A stretch of DNA of 13,926 nt, taken from the IMG/VR virus record IMGVR_UViG_2529292830_000019. One strand, given 5' to 3'. Shown here piece after piece: positions 1 to 13,926 of the stretch (position 1 is its first letter; every line of letters begins with the position of its first letter). The translations under genes were made by a program, and so were the position numbers. The notes under the pieces were generated by a model. The model searched no databases, had not been told where the DNA came from, and saw only the letters and a list, made by a program, of their open reading frames with translations. This DNA is from a virus. Its lineage: Duplodnaviria > Heunggongvirae > Uroviricota > Caudoviricetes.

Positions 1-30
1 ACACCCACTCTATTTAAATACCGTCTTTTT

Positions 31-75
31 GTCACTGTGTGTCACTGGTTGTCACTCTCCGTCACGGTATGTCAC
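31..75. repeat. Five direct GTCAC repeats at exactly 10-bp spacing (31, 41, 51, 61, 71)
   Basis: Read directly: tGTCACtgtg / tGTCACtggt / tGTCACtctc / cGTCACggta / tGTCACcaca. Lies just downstream of the last minus-strand gene. Confidence 0.6.
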
Positions 76-81
76 CACAAG

Positions 82-375
82 TTAACGTCGTAACCGCTCC
101 GGCTTCTTCCAGTGGTAAGTAATTTTTTCTTTCTCCTGGTACATCTCCACGCGGCGACGATATGACAACAACTCCAGAACTCTGGTGCGTATATTGCGTA
201 TATCCACGCCGTTAAGCTCGATACCGTCACGGCGCATCACCTCAGCCACCACACGCGCGTAATTTTCGGCTATCACGCTGTCCGGCTGCGTGGCCTCCTG
301 TTTGCCTGCTTCCTGGCTGATTCCGGTAACGCGACGGATTATTTTTAGTAGTTCGGTTTCGCTCATTCTCGTCAT
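82..375 (-). CDS. Hypothetical protein, 97 aa, last gene of the packaging operon
   Basis: ATG at 375..373 overlaps the terL stop (ATGA). No family recognised; residues 5-25 are weakly helix-turn-helix-like. Confidence 0.5.
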   Translation of the reverse strand: MTRMSETELLKIIRRVTGISQEAGKQEATQPDSVIAENYARVVAEVMRRDGIELNGVDIRNIRTRVLELLSYRRRVEMYQEKEKITYHWKKPERLRR

Positions 376-2033
376 ACCCCATCAAACGCCGAAAGCCGCT
401 CTTTGTGGCTGTCGCTTATATCAAATGCAAATTCCTCATGTTCTGCCTGGAATGTGCCAAACGCCATCAGAGCCGCAACGCTCGGGTCTATCTTGTTGGA
501 TGATTTTTTCTTGTTCGGCTTGATATTGGCGTTCGCGTCACTCTGCATCACAACATTACTCATTGACCAGGCCAGCACCGGATCGCCACGATGCACAATC
601 ACCTTCCGGTTAACAAAAACTTCGAACGATTTCGCCGCCGGACTGAAACGAAGGTATGTTTGCGGGAACGGCTCCACCTCAAATCCTGCCCCCTGTAGCT
701 GCGTCCTCAGGTGCGTGGCGTTCCATGTATCGAAGCCCACCAGCCTGATATTGAAATTCTCTGCATCCGCCATGATGTCATCACGGATACGGTCATAATC
801 AATGCAGTCACCCGGTGTTGTGCGTATCCAGCCCGCCTTTACCCACTGGCGATAGATGGCGCGGTTTTTATTGGCGGGGTTCTGTAGCTGAAATTCAGGC
901 AGATAGTGACGGGAAACCAGCATAATCTTTTTACCGACCGGAAAGGCATAGCACACGCTGGAAATATCGCTGGTTGATGATAAGTCCAGCCCCGCGTAGC
1001 ACTCCTGCCCGTATAAATCCGCCTCCGCGAACGTTCCGGCGCACTCCGCCCATGCACCGTTACCCATCCACGGCGTAGCCCCCTGACACCAGATATTGAA
1101 TCGCTTGGTGAGCATTTCCACCCACTGCGACGGAATACCCCGCGCTTTCTGGATGGTTGAGGCCAGTTTTTCACGATCGACGGAAACATCGATATTGGGA
1201 TTCGCCTTTATCCACATCGCCGGATCGTCAACCTCGCTTTCATCATCCAGCTCGTAAATCAGCACGAACATGGATTCGTTCACCTCTTCACCATCCAGTA
1301 TCTGGCAGCAATAGTCATAGTGTTGTTTACAGGCTGAAACAACGTTGCTCCCCGATGTGGTGATGGCAAATAACAGCCCCTCCGGACGCGCCCCCATTCC
1401 CAGTTCAAGCGCGGAATAAACCCCGTTGTCAGGGTGCAGGTGATATTCATCCACAATGGCAAGACTCGGGTTTGTACCTTCAATGGTTGCCGCTTTTGCT
1501 GCCAGTGGCTTTAACAGGCTGTTGGTTTTCGGGTGTATCACCTTGTGTGCCTGAATATTTACCCGCTTTCGTAACGGTCGGGATAAAAGGCACATCTGAC
1601 GCGCATCATCAAACACGATCCGCGCCTGATCACGACTCACGGCGGCGGTGTAAATATCCTGCTGCCCGTTTTCCATAACCAGAAACCAGTTAGCCAGGAT
1701 AGCGGCGACCGTGGATTTGGCATTTTTTCGCGGCACTTCAATGAATGCGCTGGTGTATTTGCGCCGTCCGGTGGCCTTAACCTTAAAGCCCAGGATGCAC
1801 GCAAAGGCGAACTGCTGCCACGGCTCCAGCTCAATGGGGCTACCGCGCATTGCGCCTTTTACGTGCGGACACACCCTGGAAAAGGCAATAAACCGCTCCA
1901 CGACCTCCGGATCGAACGTGTAAAGGGGGTTTTCAAGGTCAGAAAAATCCCGTTTAACGGCCTGTTTCAGTCGTTTACAGGCCGTAATTTTGCCGTTTTT
2001 TACGCCTTCTGCGTACTCATGCCAGGCGGTCAA
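372..2033 (-). CDS. Phage terminase large subunit (HK97/Terminase_1-like), 553 aa
   Basis: Length and N-terminus (MTAWHEYAEGVKNGKITACKRLKQAVKRDF...) are typical of this family. First in-frame start is TTG at 2033..2031, preceded by GAGGA; it overlaps the terS stop by 17 nt. Confidence 0.88.
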   Translation of the reverse strand: MTAWHEYAEGVKNGKITACKRLKQAVKRDFSDLENPLYTFDPEVVERFIAFSRVCPHVKGAMRGSPIELEPWQQFAFACILGFKVKATGRRKYTSAFIEVPRKNAKSTVAAILANWFLVMENGQQDIYTAAVSRDQARIVFDDARQMCLLSRPLRKRVNIQAHKVIHPKTNSLLKPLAAKAATIEGTNPSLAIVDEYHLHPDNGVYSALELGMGARPEGLLFAITTSGSNVVSACKQHYDYCCQILDGEEVNESMFVLIYELDDESEVDDPAMWIKANPNIDVSVDREKLASTIQKARGIPSQWVEMLTKRFNIWCQGATPWMGNGAWAECAGTFAEADLYGQECYAGLDLSSTSDISSVCYAFPVGKKIMLVSRHYLPEFQLQNPANKNRAIYRQWVKAGWIRTTPGDCIDYDRIRDDIMADAENFNIRLVGFDTWNATHLRTQLQGAGFEVEPFPQTYLRFSPAAKSFEVFVNRKVIVHRGDPVLAWSMSNVVMQSDANANIKPNKKKSSNKIDPSVAALMAFGTFQAEHEEFAFDISDSHKERLSAFDGV

Positions 2034-2373
2034 GCTCGTCCTCTTCCTCTGTTTCCGGTGGATTTCTGCGGCGACTTACCGGGTCAAAACCCAGCAAAGA
2101 AGCCATTTTGATCATTATTCTTTCAGCGTCAGCCTTTGCGCTCAGGGCGGGGTTTCTGCTCTCGCTGCCCTGACTGTTAACAATGCTGAACCCGCGCGTG
2201 GCAAGGTCTTCGACGGCTTTGCGGTATATGGAGTAGTTAACGCAATACAGCTCCAGATTGCTCCAGTCGGCGGGGGTAAGGTCTTCCCGTCCGGAAAGCT
2301 GGCGCGATTTTTCCTTCCACTGCCTGACCGCGATTTCATCCAGGTAAGCGGGGGCTTTTGGTGGTCTTGCCAT
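2017..2373 (-). CDS. Phage terminase small subunit, P27 family, about 118 aa
   Basis: MARPPKAPAYLDEIAVRQWKEK... and the C-terminal region match the P27 terS pattern. I chose ATG at 2373; the ORF track's upstream start at 2514 adds a hydrophobic, non-terS-like extension. Confidence 0.72.
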   Translation of the reverse strand: MARPPKAPAYLDEIAVRQWKEKSRQLSGREDLTPADWSNLELYCVNYSIYRKAVEDLATRGFSIVNSQGSESRNPALSAKADAERIMIKMASLLGFDPVSRRRNPPETEEEDELDRLA

Positions 2374-2661
2374 GTTCTTTTTTCGCCCAATTATTTTCAA
2401 AAAAATTCCCGTGCACAAAAATTTGAGGAGGCGGTCGGTGTCCGGCAGGGACGGTTTCGTCCTGAAAACCACCCCCACCCCCTCTGACGGCCTCACCAGC
2501 GATTGCGAAAACATTCCATGACCTCGCGGTCACGGTCGGTTAATTGCTTCGCTGTGGTGCGTTCTGTGCGCCCTGTCCTGTTGGCTTTGTGCCCTGTCTC
2601 CTGTGTCTTCCATAAGTCACGCTGCCTTATCAGTCCACGTATCAGCCTGGTTTGCTCCTGT
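2374..2661. other. Non-coding HNH-terS intergenic region; candidate cos / terminase recognition region
   Basis: 288 bp with no convincing ORF. Contains the tract CCACCCCCACCCCCTC (2469-2484), a direct repeat tgtgc(g)ccctgtc (2565-2577 and 2588-2599), a hairpin GGACG-gttt-CGTCC (2446-2459) and an A/T-rich stretch next to the terS start. In HK97-type cos phages the site lies between HNH and terS. Confidence 0.3.
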
Positions 2662-3102
2662 TCAGTCATCATCGCCATACATCCAGTCGTTACGGTGTGC
2701 TGCCCGTTCTTCCTGCTCGCGATACATGCCCGCCTTACGGTTCGCTTTCGTGGCTGGATCTTCCCGTGTCGTCTTACGGTTGTGGCACGTCTGGCACAAT
2801 GCCTGGTGGTTCCACTCAGGCCAGAAGAGAACATCACCGCCGCCATTGATGGGGATGATGTGATCCACCACAAGAGCTGGCGTATAAATCCCCTTAGCCA
2901 GACAACGCACGCATAACGGGTTTTTGCTCAGGTACAGGGCGCGGTATTTGTCCCACTGTCGGGAATACCCGCGCGCGCGGCGGTGTCCCCGTCTGGCATC
3001 CTCTGCACGCCATACAGCCCGTCTGTGCTCTTCACACTTGCCGGACTTCACGCGCTTATTACAGCCCGGCTCAGTGCATCGCCTTAATGGTTGCCACGGC
3101 AT
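2662..3102 (-). CDS. HNH endonuclease (phage terminase-associated), 146 aa
   Basis: Cys-rich CxxC pairs plus the HNH core (VVDHIIPINGGGD...WNHQALCQTCHNRKT). ATG at 3102 overlaps the upstream stop (TGATG). Confidence 0.85.
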   Translation of the reverse strand: MPWQPLRRCTEPGCNKRVKSGKCEEHRRAVWRAEDARRGHRRARGYSRQWDKYRALYLSKNPLCVRCLAKGIYTPALVVDHIIPINGGGDVLFWPEWNHQALCQTCHNRKTTREDPATKANRKAGMYREQEERAAHRNDWMYGDDD

Positions 3103-3404
3103 CAGTACACCCCCACATCACGATAAACCGACCAGAGCGCAGAAATAGCCATAGGCAGTTCAGACTGCTCCACTGGTGAAACTGCTTCCCTGTTCTCGTA
3201 CAGGAAAGCGATGTACATCAGGCAACCAACACGCATTGCCGGGGTAAATTCCAGCCCGTCTTCAAAACGTTTCCCGATATGCTTCTGGCAGGCTTCCAGC
3301 GCCGCATCGGTATACATTTTCAGAAGTTCGCCTTCACCGGATAAATCATCATCAAGTCGAAGATGTGCCCTGACTTCATCAGGTGTAATTCTGGCTTCAC
3401 TCAT
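3102..3404 (-). CDS. gp6-like head-tail connector / head completion protein, about 100 aa
   Basis: MSEARITPDEVRAHLRLDDD...EGELLKMYTDAALEACQKHIGK resembles the Phage_connect_1 (gp6-like) N-terminus. Start ATG at 3404 with GGGAGA upstream; it overlaps the portal stop by 8 nt. Confidence 0.7.
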   Translation of the reverse strand: MSEARITPDEVRAHLRLDDDLSGEGELLKMYTDAALEACQKHIGKRFEDGLEFTPAMRVGCLMYIAFLYENREAVSPVEQSELPMAISALWSVYRDVGVY

Positions 3405-4611
3405 CTTTTCTCCCTTTAATTTCCACAGTCTGTTTCCATGCCTGGCTGAACTCATCACCACCTTCACGCGGCGGCATACCCTCGCGTTCGCGAGCTTCGT
3501 TCGGATTCATGATCCCGCTCTTAATCCCTTTCTCATACGTGGCATAACGTTCGGTGGGTGTGGCGCGCAGTAAATCGGCTGAATCAAACTCAACCAGATA
3601 ACGGGTACCAGGTACGGGAGAAGTCACCAGCAAAGCGGCCTTGATTTGCTGTTCGAAGTTCGCCAGCCACGGGCGCATTGTCATGGTCAGAAATGCGCGG
3701 CTCGCCTCACTGAAATTGCTGTAGGTGCTGTTGCTGTATTCCTGAAGAAAAATCGGCGACACGTTGAACATCCTGGCGATGTCTTCAATGGAGAAGCGAC
3801 GGGAGGCCAGCCATTCCGCATCCTGGTTACTCATCCCCAGCTGCCTGTAATCCATGCCCCCTTCAAGGATTGGCGTTTTTCCGGCATTTTTCGCCCCCTT
3901 GTAGCGTTCCAGTGCGTCTAATGCCTGTTTACCTTTCACGCCGTCCAGCCATTCACCTGACGTGATAATCCCTGCCGCCATCATGCCATCTTTCATAATG
4001 CTGGCTCCGTGACGCTGTTGAGCAAGGCCAAGCCCCAGCGCCTCACGGCAAATCGTGACGGGGGAACGCCCCAGAAAGCCATCATCCGAGGCATAGCGGA
4101 GATGCAGAACTTCTTCCTGTAAATACGTGCGCACCGTTCCTGTACAGGGTTCGGTGATGGTATAGCGGTATTTGTGTGTGCCTGTGCGTTCCGGTACAAC
4201 ACACCCCGGCGCATAAGGATGAAGTGATTTTGGCTGCCCGTCCCGCCCCCACTCAATAACCGCATAGGCGTTACCGTTCAGCAGGCAGTGACGCATCATT
4301 GTGCGTTTAAACTGGTAAGGTGTCAGGCACGAATTAGGCTGCTCATTCAGCAGAATATCTACCGGGTGACTGTCCAGCCATTCCCGCGCCTCTCTGCCCT
4401 TATCATTGCGTACCAGATACAGGTAACACGGCATCGTGGCCACCGCCTCAGCGATGACAGAAACCGCGTTCATCACAGCAGGCAATGATTCAGCCGTCCC
4501 GGCAGAAACATATTCTCCGGATCCGGTATTTGGTACACCAGACAACGCCAGAAAATCATCAATGGACAGGTTACGCAGATCGCTTTTTTTACGACTAAAA
4601 GGCCACCACAT
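3397..4611 (-). CDS. HK97-family portal protein, about 404 aa
   Basis: Size and sequence are portal-like. I chose ATG at 4611 (MWWPFSRKK...), one nucleotide after the protease stop; the ORF-track start at 4701 would overlap the protease gene. Confidence 0.85.
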   Translation of the reverse strand: MWWPFSRKKSDLRNLSIDDFLALSGVPNTGSGEYVSAGTAESLPAVMNAVSVIAEAVATMPCYLYLVRNDKGREAREWLDSHPVDILLNEQPNSCLTPYQFKRTMMRHCLLNGNAYAVIEWGRDGQPKSLHPYAPGCVVPERTGTHKYRYTITEPCTGTVRTYLQEEVLHLRYASDDGFLGRSPVTICREALGLGLAQQRHGASIMKDGMMAAGIITSGEWLDGVKGKQALDALERYKGAKNAGKTPILEGGMDYRQLGMSNQDAEWLASRRFSIEDIARMFNVSPIFLQEYSNSTYSNFSEASRAFLTMTMRPWLANFEQQIKAALLVTSPVPGTRYLVEFDSADLLRATPTERYATYEKGIKSGIMNPNEAREREGMPPREGGDEFSQAWKQTVEIKGRKDE

Positions 4612-4612
4612 A

Positions 4613-5173
4613 TCACAACCCCGCCAGTTCAGCCCAGCGATGACGATTATTTCCTGCCGGGCGTAATTCAGGGTACTGTGCAAACAACGAACGGTGGGCA
4701 ATCTCCACGCCGGATTCGGGATAAGCAGGCATCGATGTTATCGTGATTTCACGGAGTTCTGCTGCGGTTACAGTACGCAGATACGGTTTTTGCGCGATAT
4801 TCCACTCCTCGCATAATGCGCGAAAGCCAAAGCTCATTCCTGTAATATCGCCACGTTCCACCAGCGTAAGCACATCTTTTCCAAGCTGGGTATTTGGCGG
4901 TGTCAGTTCAAAACGTAGCCCGGTGTTATCCTCAGTCAGTACCAGTGAGCCGGATTTGGTACGCCCCAGCAGTTGGGTATAGTCATGCTCATACAGACAG
5001 CGCACATCATTACCTGCCGCCAGATAGTCAGCAAAAGCCCCCGGCGTGAACTGTTCGCGAAACTCGTCCCAGATAATTTCTGAAAGGCTGTTCCAGCGAA
5101 CGGCATAACCCACCAGTTTTTTATCGCTGGCGGTCAGTTCAGATGTACGGATTTCAAAATCGGTGTTTTTCAT
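4613..5173 (-). CDS. HK97-family prohead protease (S78/U35), about 186 aa
   Basis: MKNTDFEIRTSE...GYAVRWNSL...GMSFGFRA...ITSMPAYPESG matches the prohead-protease pattern. ATG at 5173 with GGAG 7 nt upstream; the ORF-track start at 5398 lies inside the capsid gene. Confidence 0.85.
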   Translation of the reverse strand: MKNTDFEIRTSELTASDKKLVGYAVRWNSLSEIIWDEFREQFTPGAFADYLAAGNDVRCLYEHDYTQLLGRTKSGSLVLTEDNTGLRFELTPPNTQLGKDVLTLVERGDITGMSFGFRALCEEWNIAQKPYLRTVTAAELREITITSMPAYPESGVEIAHRSLFAQYPELRPAGNNRHRWAELAGL

Positions 5174-5191
5174 CGGTGTACTCCATAAAGC

Positions 5192-5216
5192 TGAAAAAGG
5201 AGGCCGAAGCCCCCTT
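5192..5216 (-). terminator. Intrinsic terminator/attenuator between the capsid and protease genes
   Basis: On the minus-strand RNA: GGGGGC-UUCG-GCCUCC (six base pairs including one G-U, UUCG tetraloop) followed by UUUUU, then the protease RBS and ATG. Confidence 0.45.
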
Positions 5217-5222
5217 TGCTCA

Positions 5223-6368
5223 TTACTTGCCAGCCTGAATTTCCAGAATCTTGATGGCGTTCGAATCCACCACACCACCGCCCAGATATTTCTGGGTATA
5301 GATGTTAATGAATCCAGGCTCGCTGAAATCCGGACGGGTACGCGTACCGGTTTTATGGTCAACGATGAAATAACCGCGCTTAAAGTCACCGACTGCAATC
5401 ACACCGTCCGGCATAAATTCCAGATATTCAACCGGAAGCCCCAGCAGAGAATCAGGATCACCAGCCTGTAAACGATCGCGCCAGATGTAATCACCAGTGG
5501 CATTTTTCAGTTTTTGTGCGGAGGCGGCTGTATTTGAGTTCATCACCCATACAGCTTTTTTGCGGTACTTATTGCGCAGCGTAAATTTCAGGTCAATCAG
5601 CATATCGGCGCTGAGACTGCCAGTCACTTTTTTCGTCTGGAGCGTACCGAAAGGACGGGTTTTGTCATTATCCGTAGTGCGCGGGAAAGTCAGGAAACCT
5701 TTGGCTTTTTTCTCGCCATCCCCGGAAACCAGATCCGTTTCTTCGGTATCAACGAAAGTGTCGCCAATTTCAGAAGATAACCAGCCCATAATATCGACTT
5801 CGGAAAAATCGATAATTTCCTGAGTGGTTTTCGGGTAAGCGTAGATCGGATACAGGCGGATACTGACTTCATTCAGTTTTGGGGTTGCCGTCTGGTTACG
5901 TGCCGCACCTTCTTCGCCGTGTCCCACGACCGCACCCCCGGCAGAAACCAGTTGCTTAAATTCATTACTGTGAATGGTTTTAACAGTACAGATTTTACGC
6001 ATCACCGACTCATCAGAAAGCTGACGCATAATTTCTCTGTTCAGTTCCGGGATAACCGTATAACCACCATCAGCCGGAACACTGCCGGACAGGTTGCGGG
6101 TTTCCCCGGTCAGAATGTAAGAGCGTAGCTCATTTTTGGTGATTTTATCTTCGACGGGAACACCAGGCTGGTTACGTTCTTCATCAGCCACAGACTCGAG
6201 GCGGGAAATTTCTGTGTCGAGGGAATCGGCTTTTGCACGCAGTTCATCAAACTGTTTGCCTTCGTCATCGGTTAGACTGCGGTTTTCACTGTCGGCTTTT
6301 TCCAGCAGGGATCGCATCTGGTTTTTCAGGGCGGTTTTTTGCTGGCGGAGTTCGATTAATTTCTTCAT
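5223..6368 (-). CDS. HK97-family major capsid protein, 381 aa
   Basis: N-terminal coiled-coil delta-like region (MKKLIELRQQKTALKNQMRSLLEKA...) followed by an HK97-fold-like body; size is typical. Confidence 0.9.
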   Translation of the reverse strand: MKKLIELRQQKTALKNQMRSLLEKADSENRSLTDDEGKQFDELRAKADSLDTEISRLESVADEERNQPGVPVEDKITKNELRSYILTGETRNLSGSVPADGGYTVIPELNREIMRQLSDESVMRKICTVKTIHSNEFKQLVSAGGAVVGHGEEGAARNQTATPKLNEVSIRLYPIYAYPKTTQEIIDFSEVDIMGWLSSEIGDTFVDTEETDLVSGDGEKKAKGFLTFPRTTDNDKTRPFGTLQTKKVTGSLSADMLIDLKFTLRNKYRKKAVWVMNSNTAASAQKLKNATGDYIWRDRLQAGDPDSLLGLPVEYLEFMPDGVIAVGDFKRGYFIVDHKTGTRTRPDFSEPGFINIYTQKYLGGGVVDSNAIKILEIQAGK

Positions 6369-6517
6369 GAAGGTTTTCTCGCATTGGTTAAGATTCAGGA
6401 CGTGAAACCAACACGGGGGGAGCGCCGCCCGACACTCTCGGCATCTCGCAGATCAACCCGGCATCGCGCAGGGGGTCAGGCGGCATTGTGGCGGCTCACG
6501 TCTGAGTGCCACACGCC

Positions 6518-6545
6518 AACATATACATAAAAATCAGTATGTAAA
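6518..6545 (-). promoter_or_regulatory. Candidate sigma70 promoter for the head/packaging operon (-35 TTTACA, 16-nt spacer, -10 TATGTT on the minus strand)
   Basis: Hexamers read by eye. Lies between the upstream terminator and the capsid ATG, giving a leader of about 140 nt. Confidence 0.25.
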
Positions 6546-6562
6546 CATCAACCAGAATCACC

Positions 6563-6590
6563 GAACAACCTGGAACAACCACGAACAAAT
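6563..6590 (-). repeat. Three 10-bp-phased repeats (minus strand ATTTGTTCgt / GGTTGTTCca / GGTTGTTCgg) upstream of the candidate capsid promoter
   Basis: Read directly; plus strand shows GAACAACC at 6563 and 6573 and GAACAAAT at 6583. The same TTGTTC/TTGTGTC motif recurs at 12350-12400 and 12614-12676. Confidence 0.55.
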
Positions 6591-6602
6591 AATTTACAAA
6601 AC

Positions 6603-6634
6603 CTGAAAAAAGACCCGGAAAAAATCCGGGCCTT
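6603..6634 (-). terminator. Rho-independent terminator separating the SSB/FinO operon from the head operon
   Basis: Minus-strand RNA: GGCCCGGA-UUUUU-UCCGGGUC stem-loop followed by UUUUUU, immediately after the stop of the 82-aa ORF at 6642. Weaker U-run on the plus strand. Confidence 0.55.
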
Positions 6635-6641
6635 TATCGCT

Positions 6642-6890
6642 TTATTGTTTCACTGGCTCCCGCATTCTGCGTCTTATTTTCCACAAATATTCGATCATCG
6701 CTTCCACCTGCTCACGGTTGGTTGCGAAAATTTCCCCGGTCAGTGAGCTACGCAGAAAATCATGATGATCCACAAAAAATAACGCATCGGAAGAAAGCAA
6801 CCGACGATATTTTTTTGCTGTCGTGGTTTCCAGATCATCAAAACCATGAAGCTTTTTATGTTGCTGAACTTCTTCAAATGTCACTGGCAT
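6642..6890 (-). CDS. Hypothetical protein, 82 aa
   Basis: ATG at 6890 overlaps the upstream gene by 10 nt (coupled). No family recognised. Confidence 0.5.
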   Translation of the reverse strand: MPVTFEEVQQHKKLHGFDDLETTTAKKYRRLLSSDALFFVDHHDFLRSSLTGEIFATNREQVEAMIEYLWKIRRRMREPVKQ

Positions 6891-7411
6891 GTATCCCCCT
6901 TTGCTGCCCGGCGCTGGCGCTTGTGCTTCTCATTCAGCACCATCAGCCGTGTTTCTGCCTCCTGCTGTTCCTGTGGTGTCACTTCCCCACATGGCTGGCC
7001 TTTCAGGTCGTAACGTGCGCCACCAGCTATCAGGGCGCGGTAATAGCGCGGAGACTGCGCATAGGATGCCAGCGTCGCACGTAATACCCCCGACCCGAAT
7101 GCCAGCCCCCTGACGGCGATATCCTGCATCAGGTCGTCGAATATCCCCACCTTAAGCGGCTTCGGTGCTTTATGGCTGAATAAGTCAGGCCACATCTCAG
7201 TGAGGCGGTTAACGCGTCGGCGGTTTTTGCGCTGCCTTTTGGTCATATGCTGCCACGGTGTCGCCCCTGTGGGCTTCTGCTGTGCGTTCTGATTGCCGGG
7301 TATCACTTTATGCGCCGATGTGGTTTTATCCTGCTCTTGCGCCGCCTGCGTCGTTTTCTGCGGCGTGCCGTAAATGCCTTTCGGCTTCCGGTTAATGGTC
7401 AGCGTTGTCAT
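6881..7411 (-). CDS. FinO/ProQ-domain RNA-binding protein (RNA chaperone-like), 176 aa
   Basis: Basic N-terminus followed by WPDLF...KPLKVGIFDDLMQDIA...LRATLASYAQSPRYYRALIAGGARYDLKGQPCGEVT, which parallels F-plasmid FinO (WPGLF...) and ProQ (KPLKIGIFQDLV...RVDLDGNPCGEL). GGGGGAAGG RBS. Confidence 0.7.
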   Translation of the reverse strand: MTTLTINRKPKGIYGTPQKTTQAAQEQDKTTSAHKVIPGNQNAQQKPTGATPWQHMTKRQRKNRRRVNRLTEMWPDLFSHKAPKPLKVGIFDDLMQDIAVRGLAFGSGVLRATLASYAQSPRYYRALIAGGARYDLKGQPCGEVTPQEQQEAETRLMVLNEKHKRQRRAAKGDTCQ

Positions 7412-7447: not shown

Positions 7448-7873
7448 TTAAAACGGTATGTTATCCCCGTACGGGTCATCGTGCTGGCTTGTCTGTTGTT
7501 TTGCCCTGTTCAGTGCGTCAGTGGCCTGGCCCTGTTGACCTTTTTTGCCGCCCGGTCGCGCCGTTCGCGCACTGATTACGCTGTCTGCAATAACCTGCCA
7601 GCCCTGCCGCGTTTCCCCGTTCTGGCCTGTCCACTGGCTCACCTGCATGTTACCCGCCACGCTCACCAGTTCGCCTTTGTGGTGTTTTGCCAGTGCGTCG
7701 GCCTGTCTGCCAAACACCAGGACAGATAACCACATCGTCGCCGTTCCGTCATCTGCCTGGCTGCATGGCAGGGGAACCGCCATACTCGCCATCGCCATTT
7801 GTGTCCCCTTGCTGGTGGTCTTTAACTGCGGGTCAGCCACCAGCCGCCCGTAAGCCGCTATCTGTGCTGTCAT
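7448..7873 (-). CDS. ssb: Single-stranded DNA-binding protein (SSB), 141 aa
   Basis: OB-fold-like core (WLSVLVFGRQADALAKHHKGELVSVAGNMQVSQWTGQNGETRQGW) and an acidic C-terminal tail ending DDPYGDNIPF, matching the SSB ...DDDIPF tail. ATG overlaps the upstream stop (ATGA). Confidence 0.8.
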   Translation of the reverse strand: MTAQIAAYGRLVADPQLKTTSKGTQMAMASMAVPLPCSQADDGTATMWLSVLVFGRQADALAKHHKGELVSVAGNMQVSQWTGQNGETRQGWQVIADSVISARTARPGGKKGQQGQATDALNRAKQQTSQHDDPYGDNIPF

Positions 7874-8402: not shown

Positions 8403-10217
8403 TTAATTTTTGCTGTCGTCATTTGTGACCGATGCACATGATGGCATCCAGTCTTCTGAATCCTCTGTCAGTGTCACATTTGAACGCAAACCGTGCTTCG
8501 TTTTCCGTTTTATATACTCCCTGCCATATTCCGCCATTGCCCCCGGCATATCTTTACCGAAGCGCGTCAGTGTTACAGGTTTACCGAATCCGTGTGCCCT
8601 CATATATGCCAGATAGGCGTGATAAAGATACCTGCGCGGACTGAACGGAATAATTTCGGCATTACCCACTAACAGACCATCACACATTACCGACGACATG
8701 AGATAGCCACAGAAGTCCACCAGCGAATCGCCCTCGCGTTTTATCACCAGAGCTTCTTCTGATTTCTGCTGCTCATACAGCAGGCGTTTAGCTTCGTCCT
8801 GGTCAGAAAAACGAGTAAGCAGATGGCGAATCACAACCGCCAGCTCTCCTTCTATTTTTTCTGCCAGCATGGGGTCGCGCTCGTTCTCCGGTACAACCTC
8901 CGAAAAATTGAATATCACCCGACGACGTGAGATCCCCCCGCTGCGGTCACTGAATGACATGGCGTTATTGTTCACCGCCAGCACGACCGCCTGAATGCGT
9001 GTTGAGTAGGGGGCTTTATGCTTCGGGTCGATTGCCACCTTGTCACCGCCTGTAATGGCCTTAATTCCTGCGCCATCACCAGCGTAGCGGGTCATATCCG
9101 GCATGATAATCAGCGAAAAGCCAACCACTAACGCGCGTTCCCTTGCATCTTCCAGCGCCTTCATGCTTGCCGATACTGTGTTGGCCTTACCCGCCAGCAT
9201 AGTGCAAATCTCCGCCATCACGCTTTTACCACTTCCCCCTGGACCTGTTACCTCAATGAATAACTGCCAGTCGTACCGGTTCGCCAGCACCATGAATAAT
9301 GCAGCCAGCACGCGATCCGTCTTGCGGTCATTCTCTGCCACCGAGCAGCGTAACCACTTCCAGAAATTCGGCGCATGTGTTGCCAGCGTTTCCCCCTCTG
9401 CTGGTGGGCTGAAAGGTAATTCACTGGCAATTAACAACCAGTCGTTTTTGTTATGCTCCCGAAAATTACCTGTTCTGGTATCAAATACCCCGTTACTGAA
9501 TCCAATCAGGTTACGGGCTGTATTCCCCATTACAGGCAAACTTAACTTCATGGTATCGACCGCCGATTTAATGGCGTTCTGCGAATAGCTGATCTCCGCA
9601 TCAATGAAAATCTGCGCCATAGCACGCTGTAACTCTTTATCCTGAATCGGCTCCCATACAACGCCGTTGTAATGGTGAACAGTGTCAGAGTCGGCATGAA
9701 TCGCCAGTTCACCGCCATAATGTGCCAGGAGAACTTCGCCGCGCTGGCTTGCTCCCATCTGGTTAAGCGCCAGTGGTGCGGCGCTGTCTTCTGTTTTTTT
9801 CTTAACAGGAAGCTGAATCACCAGACCATCAGAAAGATTCTGGCGCTCACGGGCCAGATATTCGCGCCAGTTCTGCACCTCCTGACCGTGCATACCCTCA
9901 GGATAAAAATTTGCATCCTGTACGCCTGCCGCCGCCAGCTTCTGACCAATCGCCTTTATCATTACTGGCGCAAGATATCCGGCCCTGAATATGCGCACGG
10001 ATTTTCTGCCTTCCGGCACAATTTGCAGCTTATCCAGTTCGGATAACTGCTGCTCCCCAAGCCACACAGGAGGCTCATTATCTCCGGCCATACGCGCGTC
10101 ATGTTCCTGCCATTGTTTTGCGTGTGACCAGGCATCACTACCCGCAAAAATAATGACTTCTGTTTCTTTGTGTTTTATGCCGCGTGACTGCTGTTTTACG
10201 TTCGGTGCCAGTTTCAT
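8403..10217 (-). CDS. Primase-helicase replication initiator (P4 alpha / D5-type, SF3 helicase Walker A), 604 aa
   Basis: Walker A GPGGSGKS within a D5-like helicase region, with a primase-like N-terminal half. ATG overlaps the upstream ORF stop (ATGA); the iteron origin lies immediately downstream. Confidence 0.85.
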   Translation of the reverse strand: MKLAPNVKQQSRGIKHKETEVIIFAGSDAWSHAKQWQEHDARMAGDNEPPVWLGEQQLSELDKLQIVPEGRKSVRIFRAGYLAPVMIKAIGQKLAAAGVQDANFYPEGMHGQEVQNWREYLARERQNLSDGLVIQLPVKKKTEDSAAPLALNQMGASQRGEVLLAHYGGELAIHADSDTVHHYNGVVWEPIQDKELQRAMAQIFIDAEISYSQNAIKSAVDTMKLSLPVMGNTARNLIGFSNGVFDTRTGNFREHNKNDWLLIASELPFSPPAEGETLATHAPNFWKWLRCSVAENDRKTDRVLAALFMVLANRYDWQLFIEVTGPGGSGKSVMAEICTMLAGKANTVSASMKALEDARERALVVGFSLIIMPDMTRYAGDGAGIKAITGGDKVAIDPKHKAPYSTRIQAVVLAVNNNAMSFSDRSGGISRRRVIFNFSEVVPENERDPMLAEKIEGELAVVIRHLLTRFSDQDEAKRLLYEQQKSEEALVIKREGDSLVDFCGYLMSSVMCDGLLVGNAEIIPFSPRRYLYHAYLAYMRAHGFGKPVTLTRFGKDMPGAMAEYGREYIKRKTKHGLRSNVTLTEDSEDWMPSCASVTNDDSKN

Positions 10218-12131: not shown

Positions 12132-12320
12132 TTAGTGAACTGCCTCGCGGCTGTCCTTCCATGCCAGAACTTCGGATAAAGACCAGCCAACGGAACGACC
12201 GCCGAGTTTACGCCGTGATGGGAATTGTCCGGTCTTTTCCAGGCGATACCGACATGAGCGGCTCAGGCCTGTAAGTTGCTGACATTCTTTTTCACGTATA
12301 AAGCGATCTGTGCTTAACAC
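12132..12320 (-). CDS. alpA: AlpA-family phage transcriptional regulator (excisionase-like winged HTH), 62 aa
   Basis: IREKECQQLTGLSRSCRYRLEKTGQFPSRRKLGGRSVGWSLSEVLAWK matches the AlpA (Phage_AlpA) pattern. GTG start at 12320 with AAGGGGG 4 nt upstream. Confidence 0.85.
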   Translation of the reverse strand: MLSTDRFIREKECQQLTGLSRSCRYRLEKTGQFPSRRKLGGRSVGWSLSEVLAWKDSREAVH

Positions 12321-12696: not shown

Positions 12697-13926
12697 TTAT
12701 ATTTCTCTGGCTATTGGCAGTGTGGTTACGTTTTCGTGAGTACCCGCCAGTATCTCTAACCGCTCTGTCCACATGTCCAGCGCATTACGTTTCGCATCGA
12801 GATAACGGGAGTGGTTATAGACTCGCTGCATCCCTGGCATCTGGTGAGCGGTGAGTTGTTCGACAATATGCGGATCCACGCCTAAATCGTTCAGCATCGT
12901 GGTAAACGTGCGCCGTATATCGTGTAGTGACCAGTGCGGATGGTTTAATTTTTTGTGCGTGAATCTGCCGTATTGCGACACGCTGGCTTCCTGTTTCAGT
13001 TCCCCGAGTAATAGTCCTGTGTGTCGGTTCTGCTCCACCAGCCGTGTGACGAACGGTAAAATGCTTTCCGGTATTGGCCTGAATATGGCGACCTTCGTTT
13101 TGCTGTGCTCCTTCGGTACTGTCCAGAGCATTTCCTTAAAATCCCCCTCCCTGATCTCCGACAGCCTCAGTTCTCCGGTTCGGCAACCAAACACAATCAG
13201 GAGGCGGATTAGTGCGCTGTAGTAGGGCGGGAATATTTTTTTATCCAGCGCCTGTAATAATTCGCCCAGTTCTTTGTTACTAAGCACGCGTTCGCTTATG
13301 CCCGGCTTTTTGCCAACGTCCACCACGTTGAGATCATCCAGAACGTTACTGACTGCGTAGCGACGTTTACGGCAGAACTTAAGCGCCTGTTTACACGCCT
13401 GCATCATGTGACCAGACGTTACGGGGGATTTTTTGCGTATCCGGTCAAAACAGGCCAGCCAGTGACGTAATTCGCATTTATCCAGTGGCATGTTACCGAT
13501 GTGCTGTATGACGTGATTATTCAGGCGACTTTTCAGGCATACATAATCGACACGGTTTTCCTTTCCGTGCGTTTCCAGCCAGTAACTGATCGCATCGCCA
13601 ACCGTTACGGGTTTTAACGCTTCCTGCACAGTGTAGTTCAGTTCATGACGTGGGTTTTTCCCTTCTGCCAGCCATGCACGACACTTTGCGGCTTTTTCCC
13701 TGGCTGCTTTAAGGCTCAGATCGGGATAGTTTCCCAGCTTCAGGCGTTCCGGTGTGGTATCCCTTCCCGTTCCAGCCCTGTAGGTGAAGTACCAGGTCAA
13801 TTTACCTGATGTTAAATATTTCACGCTCAGATTACCGCCATCGCTATAGAACGTATTTTTCTCCGCTGGCTTACCATAAAGTTTTCTTAACAATGTATCG
13901 TTCAGTTTGTTAAGCGCTCTGCTCAC
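12697..13926 (-). CDS. int: Tyrosine recombinase / integrase, P4/CP4-57 type, at least 409 aa; 5' end at or beyond the window edge
   Basis: N-terminal arm-binding-like region (LNDTLLRKL...GNLSVKYLTSGKLTWYFTYR...LKLGNYPDLSLKAAREKA) and a catalytic domain with HDIRRT and the C-terminal tyrosine region. The frame is open to the last base; the codon at 13926..13924 is GTG. Confidence 0.9.
   Translation of the reverse strand: MSRALNKLNDTLLRKLYGKPAEKNTFYSDGGNLSVKYLTSGKLTWYFTYRAGTGRDTTPERLKLGNYPDLSLKAAREKAAKCRAWLAEGKNPRHELNYTVQEALKPVTVGDAISYWLETHGKENRVDYVCLKSRLNNHVIQHIGNMPLDKCELRHWLACFDRIRKKSPVTSGHMMQACKQALKFCRKRRYAVSNVLDDLNVVDVGKKPGISERVLSNKELGELLQALDKKIFPPYYSALIRLLIVFGCRTGELRLSEIREGDFKEMLWTVPKEHSKTKVAIFRPIPESILPFVTRLVEQNRHTGLLLGELKQEASVSQYGRFTHKKLNHPHWSLHDIRRTFTTMLNDLGVDPHIVEQLTAHQMPGMQRVYNHSRYLDAKRNALDMWTERLEILAGTHENVTTLPIAREI

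Follow-up and report, generated by a model that had tools for sequence, protein, structure and literature searches.

Head-gene order and a predicted cos site in the packaging operon of a probable capsid-forming phage-inducible chromosomal island of Escherichia coli

Introduction

Does a group of HK97-type head genes that begins with the capsid gene and ends with the terminase genes represent an anomalous phage module, or is it the ordinary layout of another kind of element? The question is raised by a stretch of 13,926 nucleotides (nt) from the IMG/VR virus record IMGVR_UViG_2529292830_000019, referred to here in its full length as the window, in which an inverted head-gene module had been noticed from the sequence letters alone. 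According to that original prediction, the gene order departs from that of canonical HK97-type phages, a 288-bp gap separates an HNH endonuclease gene from the gene of the small terminase subunit (terS), and, if the cohesive-end site (cos) lies in this gap, the packaged DNA should begin with terS and the large subunit gene terL and end with the head genes and HNH. The analysis presented here indicates, with a probability of about 0.9, that these genes form the packaging operon of a capsid-forming phage-inducible chromosomal island (cf-PICI) of approximately 14.6 kb, located in the yifB (comM) gene of Escherichia coli. The capsid-first, terminase-last order is an inherited, conserved layout of this satellite lineage and not a local rearrangement. 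The order was already known, and the island is an ordinary member, in a variant devoid of the head-closure gene, of a published and widespread satellite family. The “inverted” arrangement is the signature layout of that family, described in 2022-2023, and the answer to the question of an anomaly is a clean negative.

Gene order of the packaging operon and its conservation

Every long open reading frame (ORF) of the window lies on the minus strand, and the coding-strand order major capsid protein, prohead protease, portal, head-tail connector, HNH, terS, and terL was confirmed, with strong Pfam and PHROG matches showing that each of the proteins had been assigned correctly (Table 1). The departure from HK97-type phages was confirmed as well, on the records of the phages HK97, phiP27, and SfII, in which the genes run terS-terL-portal-protease-capsid-Ad1-Hc1, Ad1 being the gp6-like head-tail connector. 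In HK97 and phiP27, HNH is located just upstream of cos and terS, while the SfII stretch examined begins just upstream of terS.

This organization is uniform among related elements. Of approximately 200 IMG/VR loci, collected via terL similarity or the cos-region motif, every one holding the module is arranged as capsid-protease-portal-(Hc1)-Ad1-HNH-(small ORF)-terS-terL. A further 80 genome loci, chosen by capsid-protein alignment from one-genome-per-species contigs, represent about 25 genera of Enterobacterales, Orbales, and Pasteurellales, including Escherichia, Serratia, Xenorhabdus, Proteus, Gilliamella, Mannheimia, and Rodentibacter; the same order was found there without exception, as far as each contig extends. 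It has been described as the conserved norm of cf-PICIs in Proteobacteria, with the statement that phage and PICI modules “have different genetic organisations” (Alqurainy et al., bioRxiv 10.1101/2022.09.08.507074). With SatelliteFinder, 969 cfPICIs were reported whose core components are “very conserved” in organization, and the family occurs in approximately 13% of Enterobacteriaceae genomes (PMC10085698). Because the order is the published norm of cf-PICIs and is uniform in our own counts, the outcome that had been named in advance as speaking against an anomaly, namely that such a gene order is usual in the family, is the one observed. The notion of an anomalous HK97-type module was not borne out, and the region is most probably a cf-PICI packaging operon, belonging to a satellite without tail or lysis genes.

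The capsid protein itself gives a similar distribution of relatives. Its best “phage” database matches, at 57-68% identity, are records that are either chimeric or of cf-PICI size; among true phages, identity does not exceed 37% over the full length, with approximately 40-42% over three quarters of it in some Pseudomonas and Klebsiella phages. The gene order, together with the absence of tail genes, allows cf-PICIs to be told apart from prophage remnants in annotation.

The island and its relatives

The chromosome of E. coli NCCP 13717 contains the window at 100% identity, between the two halves of the split yifB (comM) gene. The island is flanked by a direct repeat (17 nt exact, 26 nt imperfect), the copies of which are 14.6 kb apart. 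The putative attachment (att) repeats, AAAATGACTACACCAGT with an imperfect extension, occupy positions 5380-5405 and 19959-19984 of locus L001, immediately beyond the two ends of the window.

Upstream of the head genes, the island encodes a tyrosine integrase, AlpA, an Icd-like protein, a DUF4222 protein, a D5-type primase, SSB, and a ProQ/FinO protein. It thus has the features by which cf-PICIs are recognized: an integrase located at the end of an island falling within 10-18 kb, a module of AlpA and primase/replicase, its own capsid, protease, and portal, a gp6-like connector, its own HNH, terS, and terL, and the Proteobacterial gene order (capsid-protease-portal-connectors-HNH-terS-terL). 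Among all annotated island ORFs, scanned against Pfam, PHROGs, or both (Pfam only for the primase, SSB, DUF4222, and integrase), no match to a tail, holin, or lysis family was found. The head-closure (Phage_HCP) protein, also characteristic of cf-PICIs, is absent from the island. A complete HK97-like temperate phage would carry tail, lysis, and immunity modules; tail and lysis genes are lacking here, and the gene order is unlike that of HK97, phiP27, or SfII.

The closest characterized relative is EcCIEDL933 (NZ_CP008957.1 1680329-1694760) from E. coli O157:H7 EDL933, the tested prototype cf-PICI (Alqurainy et al. 2022/2023). Both elements have the same layout from the integrase to the protein encoded after terL, the same order capsid-protease-portal-connector-HNH-small ORF-terS-terL, and the same sequence blocks in the cos region. 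Protein identity amounts to 74% for the capsid, 61% for the protease, 80% for the portal, 56% for the connector, 84% for HNH, 88% for terS, and 93% for terL, while the integrase (84%), AlpA (90%), the post-terL protein (77%), and a 61-amino-acid (aa) ORF product (78%) are similarly close. The two islands differ in their insertion site (yifB/comM versus the vicinity of roxA/phoQ), in the primase (D5-type versus DUF927-type, with only about 145 aa shared), and in a variable accessory slot, in which the ProQ/FinO protein of the window is replaced by a PerC-family regulator in EcCIEDL933. In addition, EcCIEDL933 has a head-closure gene between portal and connector, which the window island does not. 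KpCIDSM30104 from Klebsiella pneumoniae DSM 30104 shares the gene order, the G-run, and the cos core described below, with a capsid protein 67% identical; it differs in having a head-closure gene, in its size of 16.5 kb, and in a 2.3-kb post-terL gene, annotated in the record as a tape-measure protein.

The same protein families serve all eight functions in HK97 and phiP27/SfII, and HNH lies immediately upstream of cos and terS there too, but in these phages of approximately 40 kb the order given above is followed by tail and lysis genes, and full-length capsid identity to phiP27 and SfII is only 33-37%. With classical Gram-negative PICIs (EcCICFT073 type), the island shares the int-alpA-primase left arm and AlpA-type control; those elements, unlike the island studied here, do not encode a capsid protein, portal, or terL and make use of helper capsids instead.

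Table 1. Features of the window (13,926 nt), with coordinates counted from its first letter.
Feature	Position	Strand	Support
Conserved 94-aa protein after terL, function unknown	82..366	-	phrog_1561 9e-50
Large terminase subunit terL, ATPase and nuclease domains	372..2033	-	PF03354 4e-26; PF20441 2e-52; phrog_9 5e-181
Small terminase subunit terS, P27 family	2017..2373	-	PF05119 4e-23; phrog_83 1e-38, match from residue 46
cos core (predicted) GACACCGACCGCCTCCTCAAATTTTTGTGCACGGGAATTTTTTTGAAAATAA	2393..2442	-	column conservation 0.85-0.96; homology to phiP27 cos and HK97 ends
Predicted 10-nt cohesive end CGACCGCCTC	2428-2437	-	alignment
G-run GGGGGTGGGGGTGG, upstream conserved element of the cos region	2469..2482	-	column conservation ~0.85 in 24 relatives
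Conserved 61-aa arginine-rich ORF, function unknown	2493..2678	-	phrog_3173 9e-28
HNH endonuclease of the packaging machinery	2662..3102	-	PF01844 9e-10; phrog_144 7e-45
Head-tail connector, gp6-like, Ad1	3102..3404	-	PF05135 4e-5; phrog_40 5e-29
Portal protein	3397..4611	-	PF04860 2e-91; phrog_12 2e-117
Prohead serine protease S78	4613..5173	-	PF04586 1e-44; phrog_80 2e-59
Major capsid protein, HK97 fold	5223..6368	-	PF05065 8e-61 over residues 101-376; phrog_10 1e-85
D5-type primase/replicase	8403..10217	-	PF08706, PF19263, PF03288 (D5_N, DUF5906, Pox_D5 domains)
AlpA-type regulator	12132..12320	-	PF05930 2.7e-18
Tyrosine integrase, opposite end of the island	12697..13926	-	PF13356 and PF00589

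Several gene boundaries deserve comment. The major capsid protein has an N-terminal delta/scaffold region of approximately 100 aa. The mechanically called protease ORF extends over 4613-5398, and the tabulated shorter form follows the start annotated in RefSeq. The connector starts 8 nt before the end of the portal gene (3397-3404), with no head-closure gene between them. The terS frame is open up to 2514; its true start is M48 of that ORF, in agreement with the RefSeq start.

The HNH-terS interval and the predicted cos site

From the HNH stop to the terS ATG (2373), the interval measures 288 nt (2374-2661), so the predicted length of the gap was right, while its presumed emptiness was not: 169 nt are occupied by the 61-aa ORF, which overlaps the HNH stop. 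This ORF is intact (at least 50 aa) in 151 of 158 distinct relatives, and its ratio of non-synonymous to synonymous substitutions (dN/dS) is 0.34-0.44, versus 1.4-1.7 in the two shifted frames; these sequence comparisons mark it as a genuine gene that is subject to purifying selection. The reading of the whole interval as non-coding was thereby ruled out, and the truly non-coding part comprises 119 nt (2374-2492). The protein has a conserved C-terminal motif, DRDRE..ECFRNR, and its ORF is missing from short-gap lineages, namely Xenorhabdus, Gilliamella, and some Pasteurellaceae. Mutation of the “hypothetical gene 1792” severely reduced the transfer of EcCIEDL933; counting genes from the capsid gene, numbered 1786 in a 2025 preprint, the 61-aa ORF is probably the counterpart of gene 1792.

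The non-coding part contains two conserved elements, a G-run followed by TTTTCAGGAC at 2459-2468 and, closer to terS, the block that we consider the cos core. The search for repeats in the HNH-terS gap returned only short ones at chance level. The block at 2393-2442 is the conservation peak of the interval, with column conservation of 0.85-0.96 as compared to 0.63-0.76 in the 3′ coding part of HNH and 0.82-0.86 in the 5′ coding part of terS (24 relatives, selected by the capsid protein only). It is present in nearly all of 60 distinct gap sequences (drawn from the genome loci chosen by capsid protein, plus the window and EcCIEDL933), is found across Enterobacterales, Orbales, and Pasteurellales, and persists in lineages in which the gap measures only 62-125 nt and the small ORF does not occur.

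The core aligns to the annotated cos site of phiP27, CGCCCGCCCC/GTCAAATTTTT (the stroke marking the bar of the annotation), which is likewise located between HNH and terS; the aligned sequences are GGGAC(CGCCCGCCCC)GTCAAATTTTTAC in phiP27 and CCGA(CCGCCTCCTC)AAATTTTTGT in the window. It can likewise be aligned with the physical termini of the HK97 record (...GACCGCCGCCAAA / GTTTGAATTT...). The distance that separates cos from the terS ATG is conserved at 44-49 nt among the window (48 nt), phiP27, and HK97, and a G-run lies upstream in all three. What is expected for HNH-dependent cos packaging was thus found, namely HNH directly upstream of cos, a P27-family terS, and a cos homologous to an annotated one. 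Homology to the cos of phiP27 and HK97 gives a specific candidate site, and it is likely that cos lies within 2393-2482. The position of the cut is predicted from the alignment only at even odds, with the cohesive end placed around 2428-2437. The full-text search for literature on cos mapping in phiP27 gave nothing, and no sequence-level cos map of a cf-PICI was found in the cf-PICI literature searched.

The order of genes locates cos, and with it the termini of the packaged molecule, in the stretch that separates terS from the small ORF behind HNH. Placement of cos in the HNH-terS gap, as originally proposed, is supported by the conservation peak, by the homology to phiP27 and HK97, and by two particle-derived assemblies that break there (see below). 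A packaged genome with terS and terL first and with the head genes and HNH last agrees with this placement, with the small ORF also at the end. The family phrog_32378 (“unknown function”) matches the terS-frame translation of the cos region (2392-2514, minus strand; residues 1-41 of a 165-aa ORF) and is probably an artefact in which conserved cos DNA was called as protein.

Particle-derived assemblies and the ends of packaged DNA

The record vB_KppS-Ant (LR881103.1) was found to be the cf-PICI KpCIDSM30104. It was assembled from DNase-protected DNA of a K. pneumoniae DSM 30104 lysate, using Nextera XT and SPAdes, with no reordering mentioned (PMC8006926). The linear contig begins 22 nt before terS and, past the small ORF, stops just after the G-run, while integrated copies of KpCIDSM30104 contain 69 extra nt between these two ends, centred on the cos core. 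Contig ends of this kind would arise if the molecule terminates at this site and its last few tens of bases are lost in tagmentation. The second case, PQ569648.1, comes from a phage preparation; the cf-PICI that it contains begins at the terS start and extends to the end of the small ORF, and here too the cos stretch is missing. These two assemblies that break in the HNH-terS interval both represent related Klebsiella elements. As side observations, vB_KppS-Ant was described in its own paper as a filamentous ssDNA prophage, although it is actually KpCIDSM30104; and in PQ569648.1, named “Klebsiella phage P12620-1” (106.5 kb), the last 15.9 kb (90644-106503) are a complete cf-PICI whose junction with unrelated sequence falls at the second base of the terS start codon, so that the record looks like a chimeric assembly.

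Headful (pac) packaging from a site in or near terS, with the non-coding block between HNH and terS acting as a promoter or regulatory region instead of cos, would fit the A/T-rich character of the block beside terS. It is nevertheless very unlikely. Promoter and terminator consensus scans of positions 1-7000 gave counts at or below the shuffled expectation, and on the coding strand the HNH-terS gap shows no site resembling a promoter. Moreover, the combination of HNH and a P27-family terS is the one that serves cos-type packaging in HK97 and phiP27, the block matches the annotated phiP27 cos and the HK97 termini position by position in the alignment, and the particle-derived contigs are non-permuted and end in the interval. 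Cohesive cos ends have also been reported for packaged cf-PICI DNA (He et al., 10.1101/2025.02.11.637232).

Some points weigh against the interpretation of the region as a cf-PICI operon with cos in this interval. The cos feature of phiP27 rests on GenBank annotation. The evidence from contig ends is indirect, and coverage could also be lost at the G-run, although approximately 250 chromosomal assemblies read through it. When ends of IMG/VR metagenome contigs were taken as a proxy for DNA ends, the cos motif occurred at many internal positions (contigs of 15-16.7 kb), and only one contig ends near the motif (21 nt after it); the breakpoints of metagenome contigs of about 15-16 kb are scattered over many other places and give no support for cos. 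The helper, induction, and particle formation are assumed for this island from EcCIEDL933. Finally, the island is without the head-closure gene, one of the two neck genes of the published module, and could be less autonomous than the prototype, or defective.

The last of these points, together with the Pfam and PHROG families shared with HK97-type phages, would also suit a decayed or rearranged remnant of an HK97/phiP27-like prophage, whose head genes were shuffled by local recombination and whose tail and lysis genes were lost. This explanation is most improbable, since no packaging ORF is truncated in comparison with the functional EcCIEDL933, one and the same layout recurs in every module-holding locus among approximately 280 loci from three bacterial orders, the left half is a PICI-type int-alpA-primase module, the island size is uniform (14-16 kb), and the small ORF is under purifying selection. 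The chance that the inversion is only apparent, a circular permutation of the canonical order in an element opened at att rather than at cos, is negligible and was ruled out by gene maps: although HNH-cos-terS-terL is contiguous and ordered as in circular HK97 and phiP27, no rotation turns terL-portal-protease-capsid-Ad1-Hc1 into capsid-protease-portal-(Hc1)-Ad1-HNH-terS-terL. Relative to the phage order, the capsid-first, terminase-last arrangement is a true rearrangement because the block capsid-protease-portal reverses portal-protease-capsid with the orientation of genes kept.

Absence of the head-closure gene and possible helper phages

With the EcCIEDL933 protein as a tblastn query, no match to a head-closure gene (Phage_HCP, PF05521) was found anywhere in the island or its flanks; a displaced copy elsewhere in the island was thus considered and discarded. 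The spacing between portal and Ad1 is bimodal, approximately 0 nt in the window and in 67 of about 240 related loci versus approximately 300-350 nt in 172, and the layout without head closure is a common variant making up about a quarter of the loci sampled. It corresponds to the “Type B” elements of SatelliteFinder, still assigned to cfPICI with 10 of 11 core components (PMC10085698).

Near-identical cf-PICI packaging modules (terS 100% and terL 98.5-99% identical to the window) were observed inside the terL gene of SfII/phiP27-like myovirus prophages, in the loci L043/L137 (IMGVR_UViG_2579778529_000004), L006, L033, L157, L192, and L124. The layout in these cases is phage HNH and the N-terminal part of terL, then the satellite from int to its own terL, followed by the C-terminal part of phage terL, the portal (99% to SfII), protease, and capsid, so that the satellite order and the canonical phage order stand side by side on one contig. 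The integrase of these embedded elements is only 39% identical to that of the window. They resemble helper-embedded PICIs, which sit in a phage late gene (PMC10111431).

A tentative and rather doubtful proposal is that the subclass without the head-closure gene does not close its heads by itself but takes the head-closure protein, along with the tail, from its helper, and that its natural helpers are contractile-tailed phiP27/SfII-like phages, in contrast to the siphoviruses employed to date; cross-talk at cos might be involved. These helpers are proposed because the modules sit in terL of such prophages and because the satellite cos is homologous to that of phiP27.

Proposed mode of action

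By homology with EcCIEDL933, a helper phage would activate alpA, and the island would excise and replicate. A single operon, presumably transcribed from upstream of the capsid gene, would provide both a small capsid of the island's own (capsid protein, protease, portal, and connector) and an HNH-dependent, self-specific terminase (HNH, terS, and terL). This terminase may cut concatemers at cos, in the 119-nt non-coding stretch between the small ORF and terS, and the packaged DNA would then run cos, terS, terL, the 94-aa protein gene, att, int, alpA, replication genes, capsid, protease, portal, connector, HNH, small ORF, cos. Filled heads would finally join tails made by the helper. In the literature, helper-dependent induction, small (T=4) self-made capsids, and helper tails are described only for EcCIEDL933 and KpCIDSM30104; for the present island, dependence on a helper and the capsid size are predicted from this relationship.

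Other observations

Two further features of the island lie outside the packaging operon. The ProQ/FinO-domain protein (PF04352 5e-24) and SSB are encoded on the minus strand at 6881-7411 and 7448-7873 of the window, between the primase gene and the capsid operon. Additionally, an 83-aa ORF without annotated function is present on the plus strand of L001 (5749-6000), with the 94-aa ORF encoded after terL on one side and the att repeat on the other.

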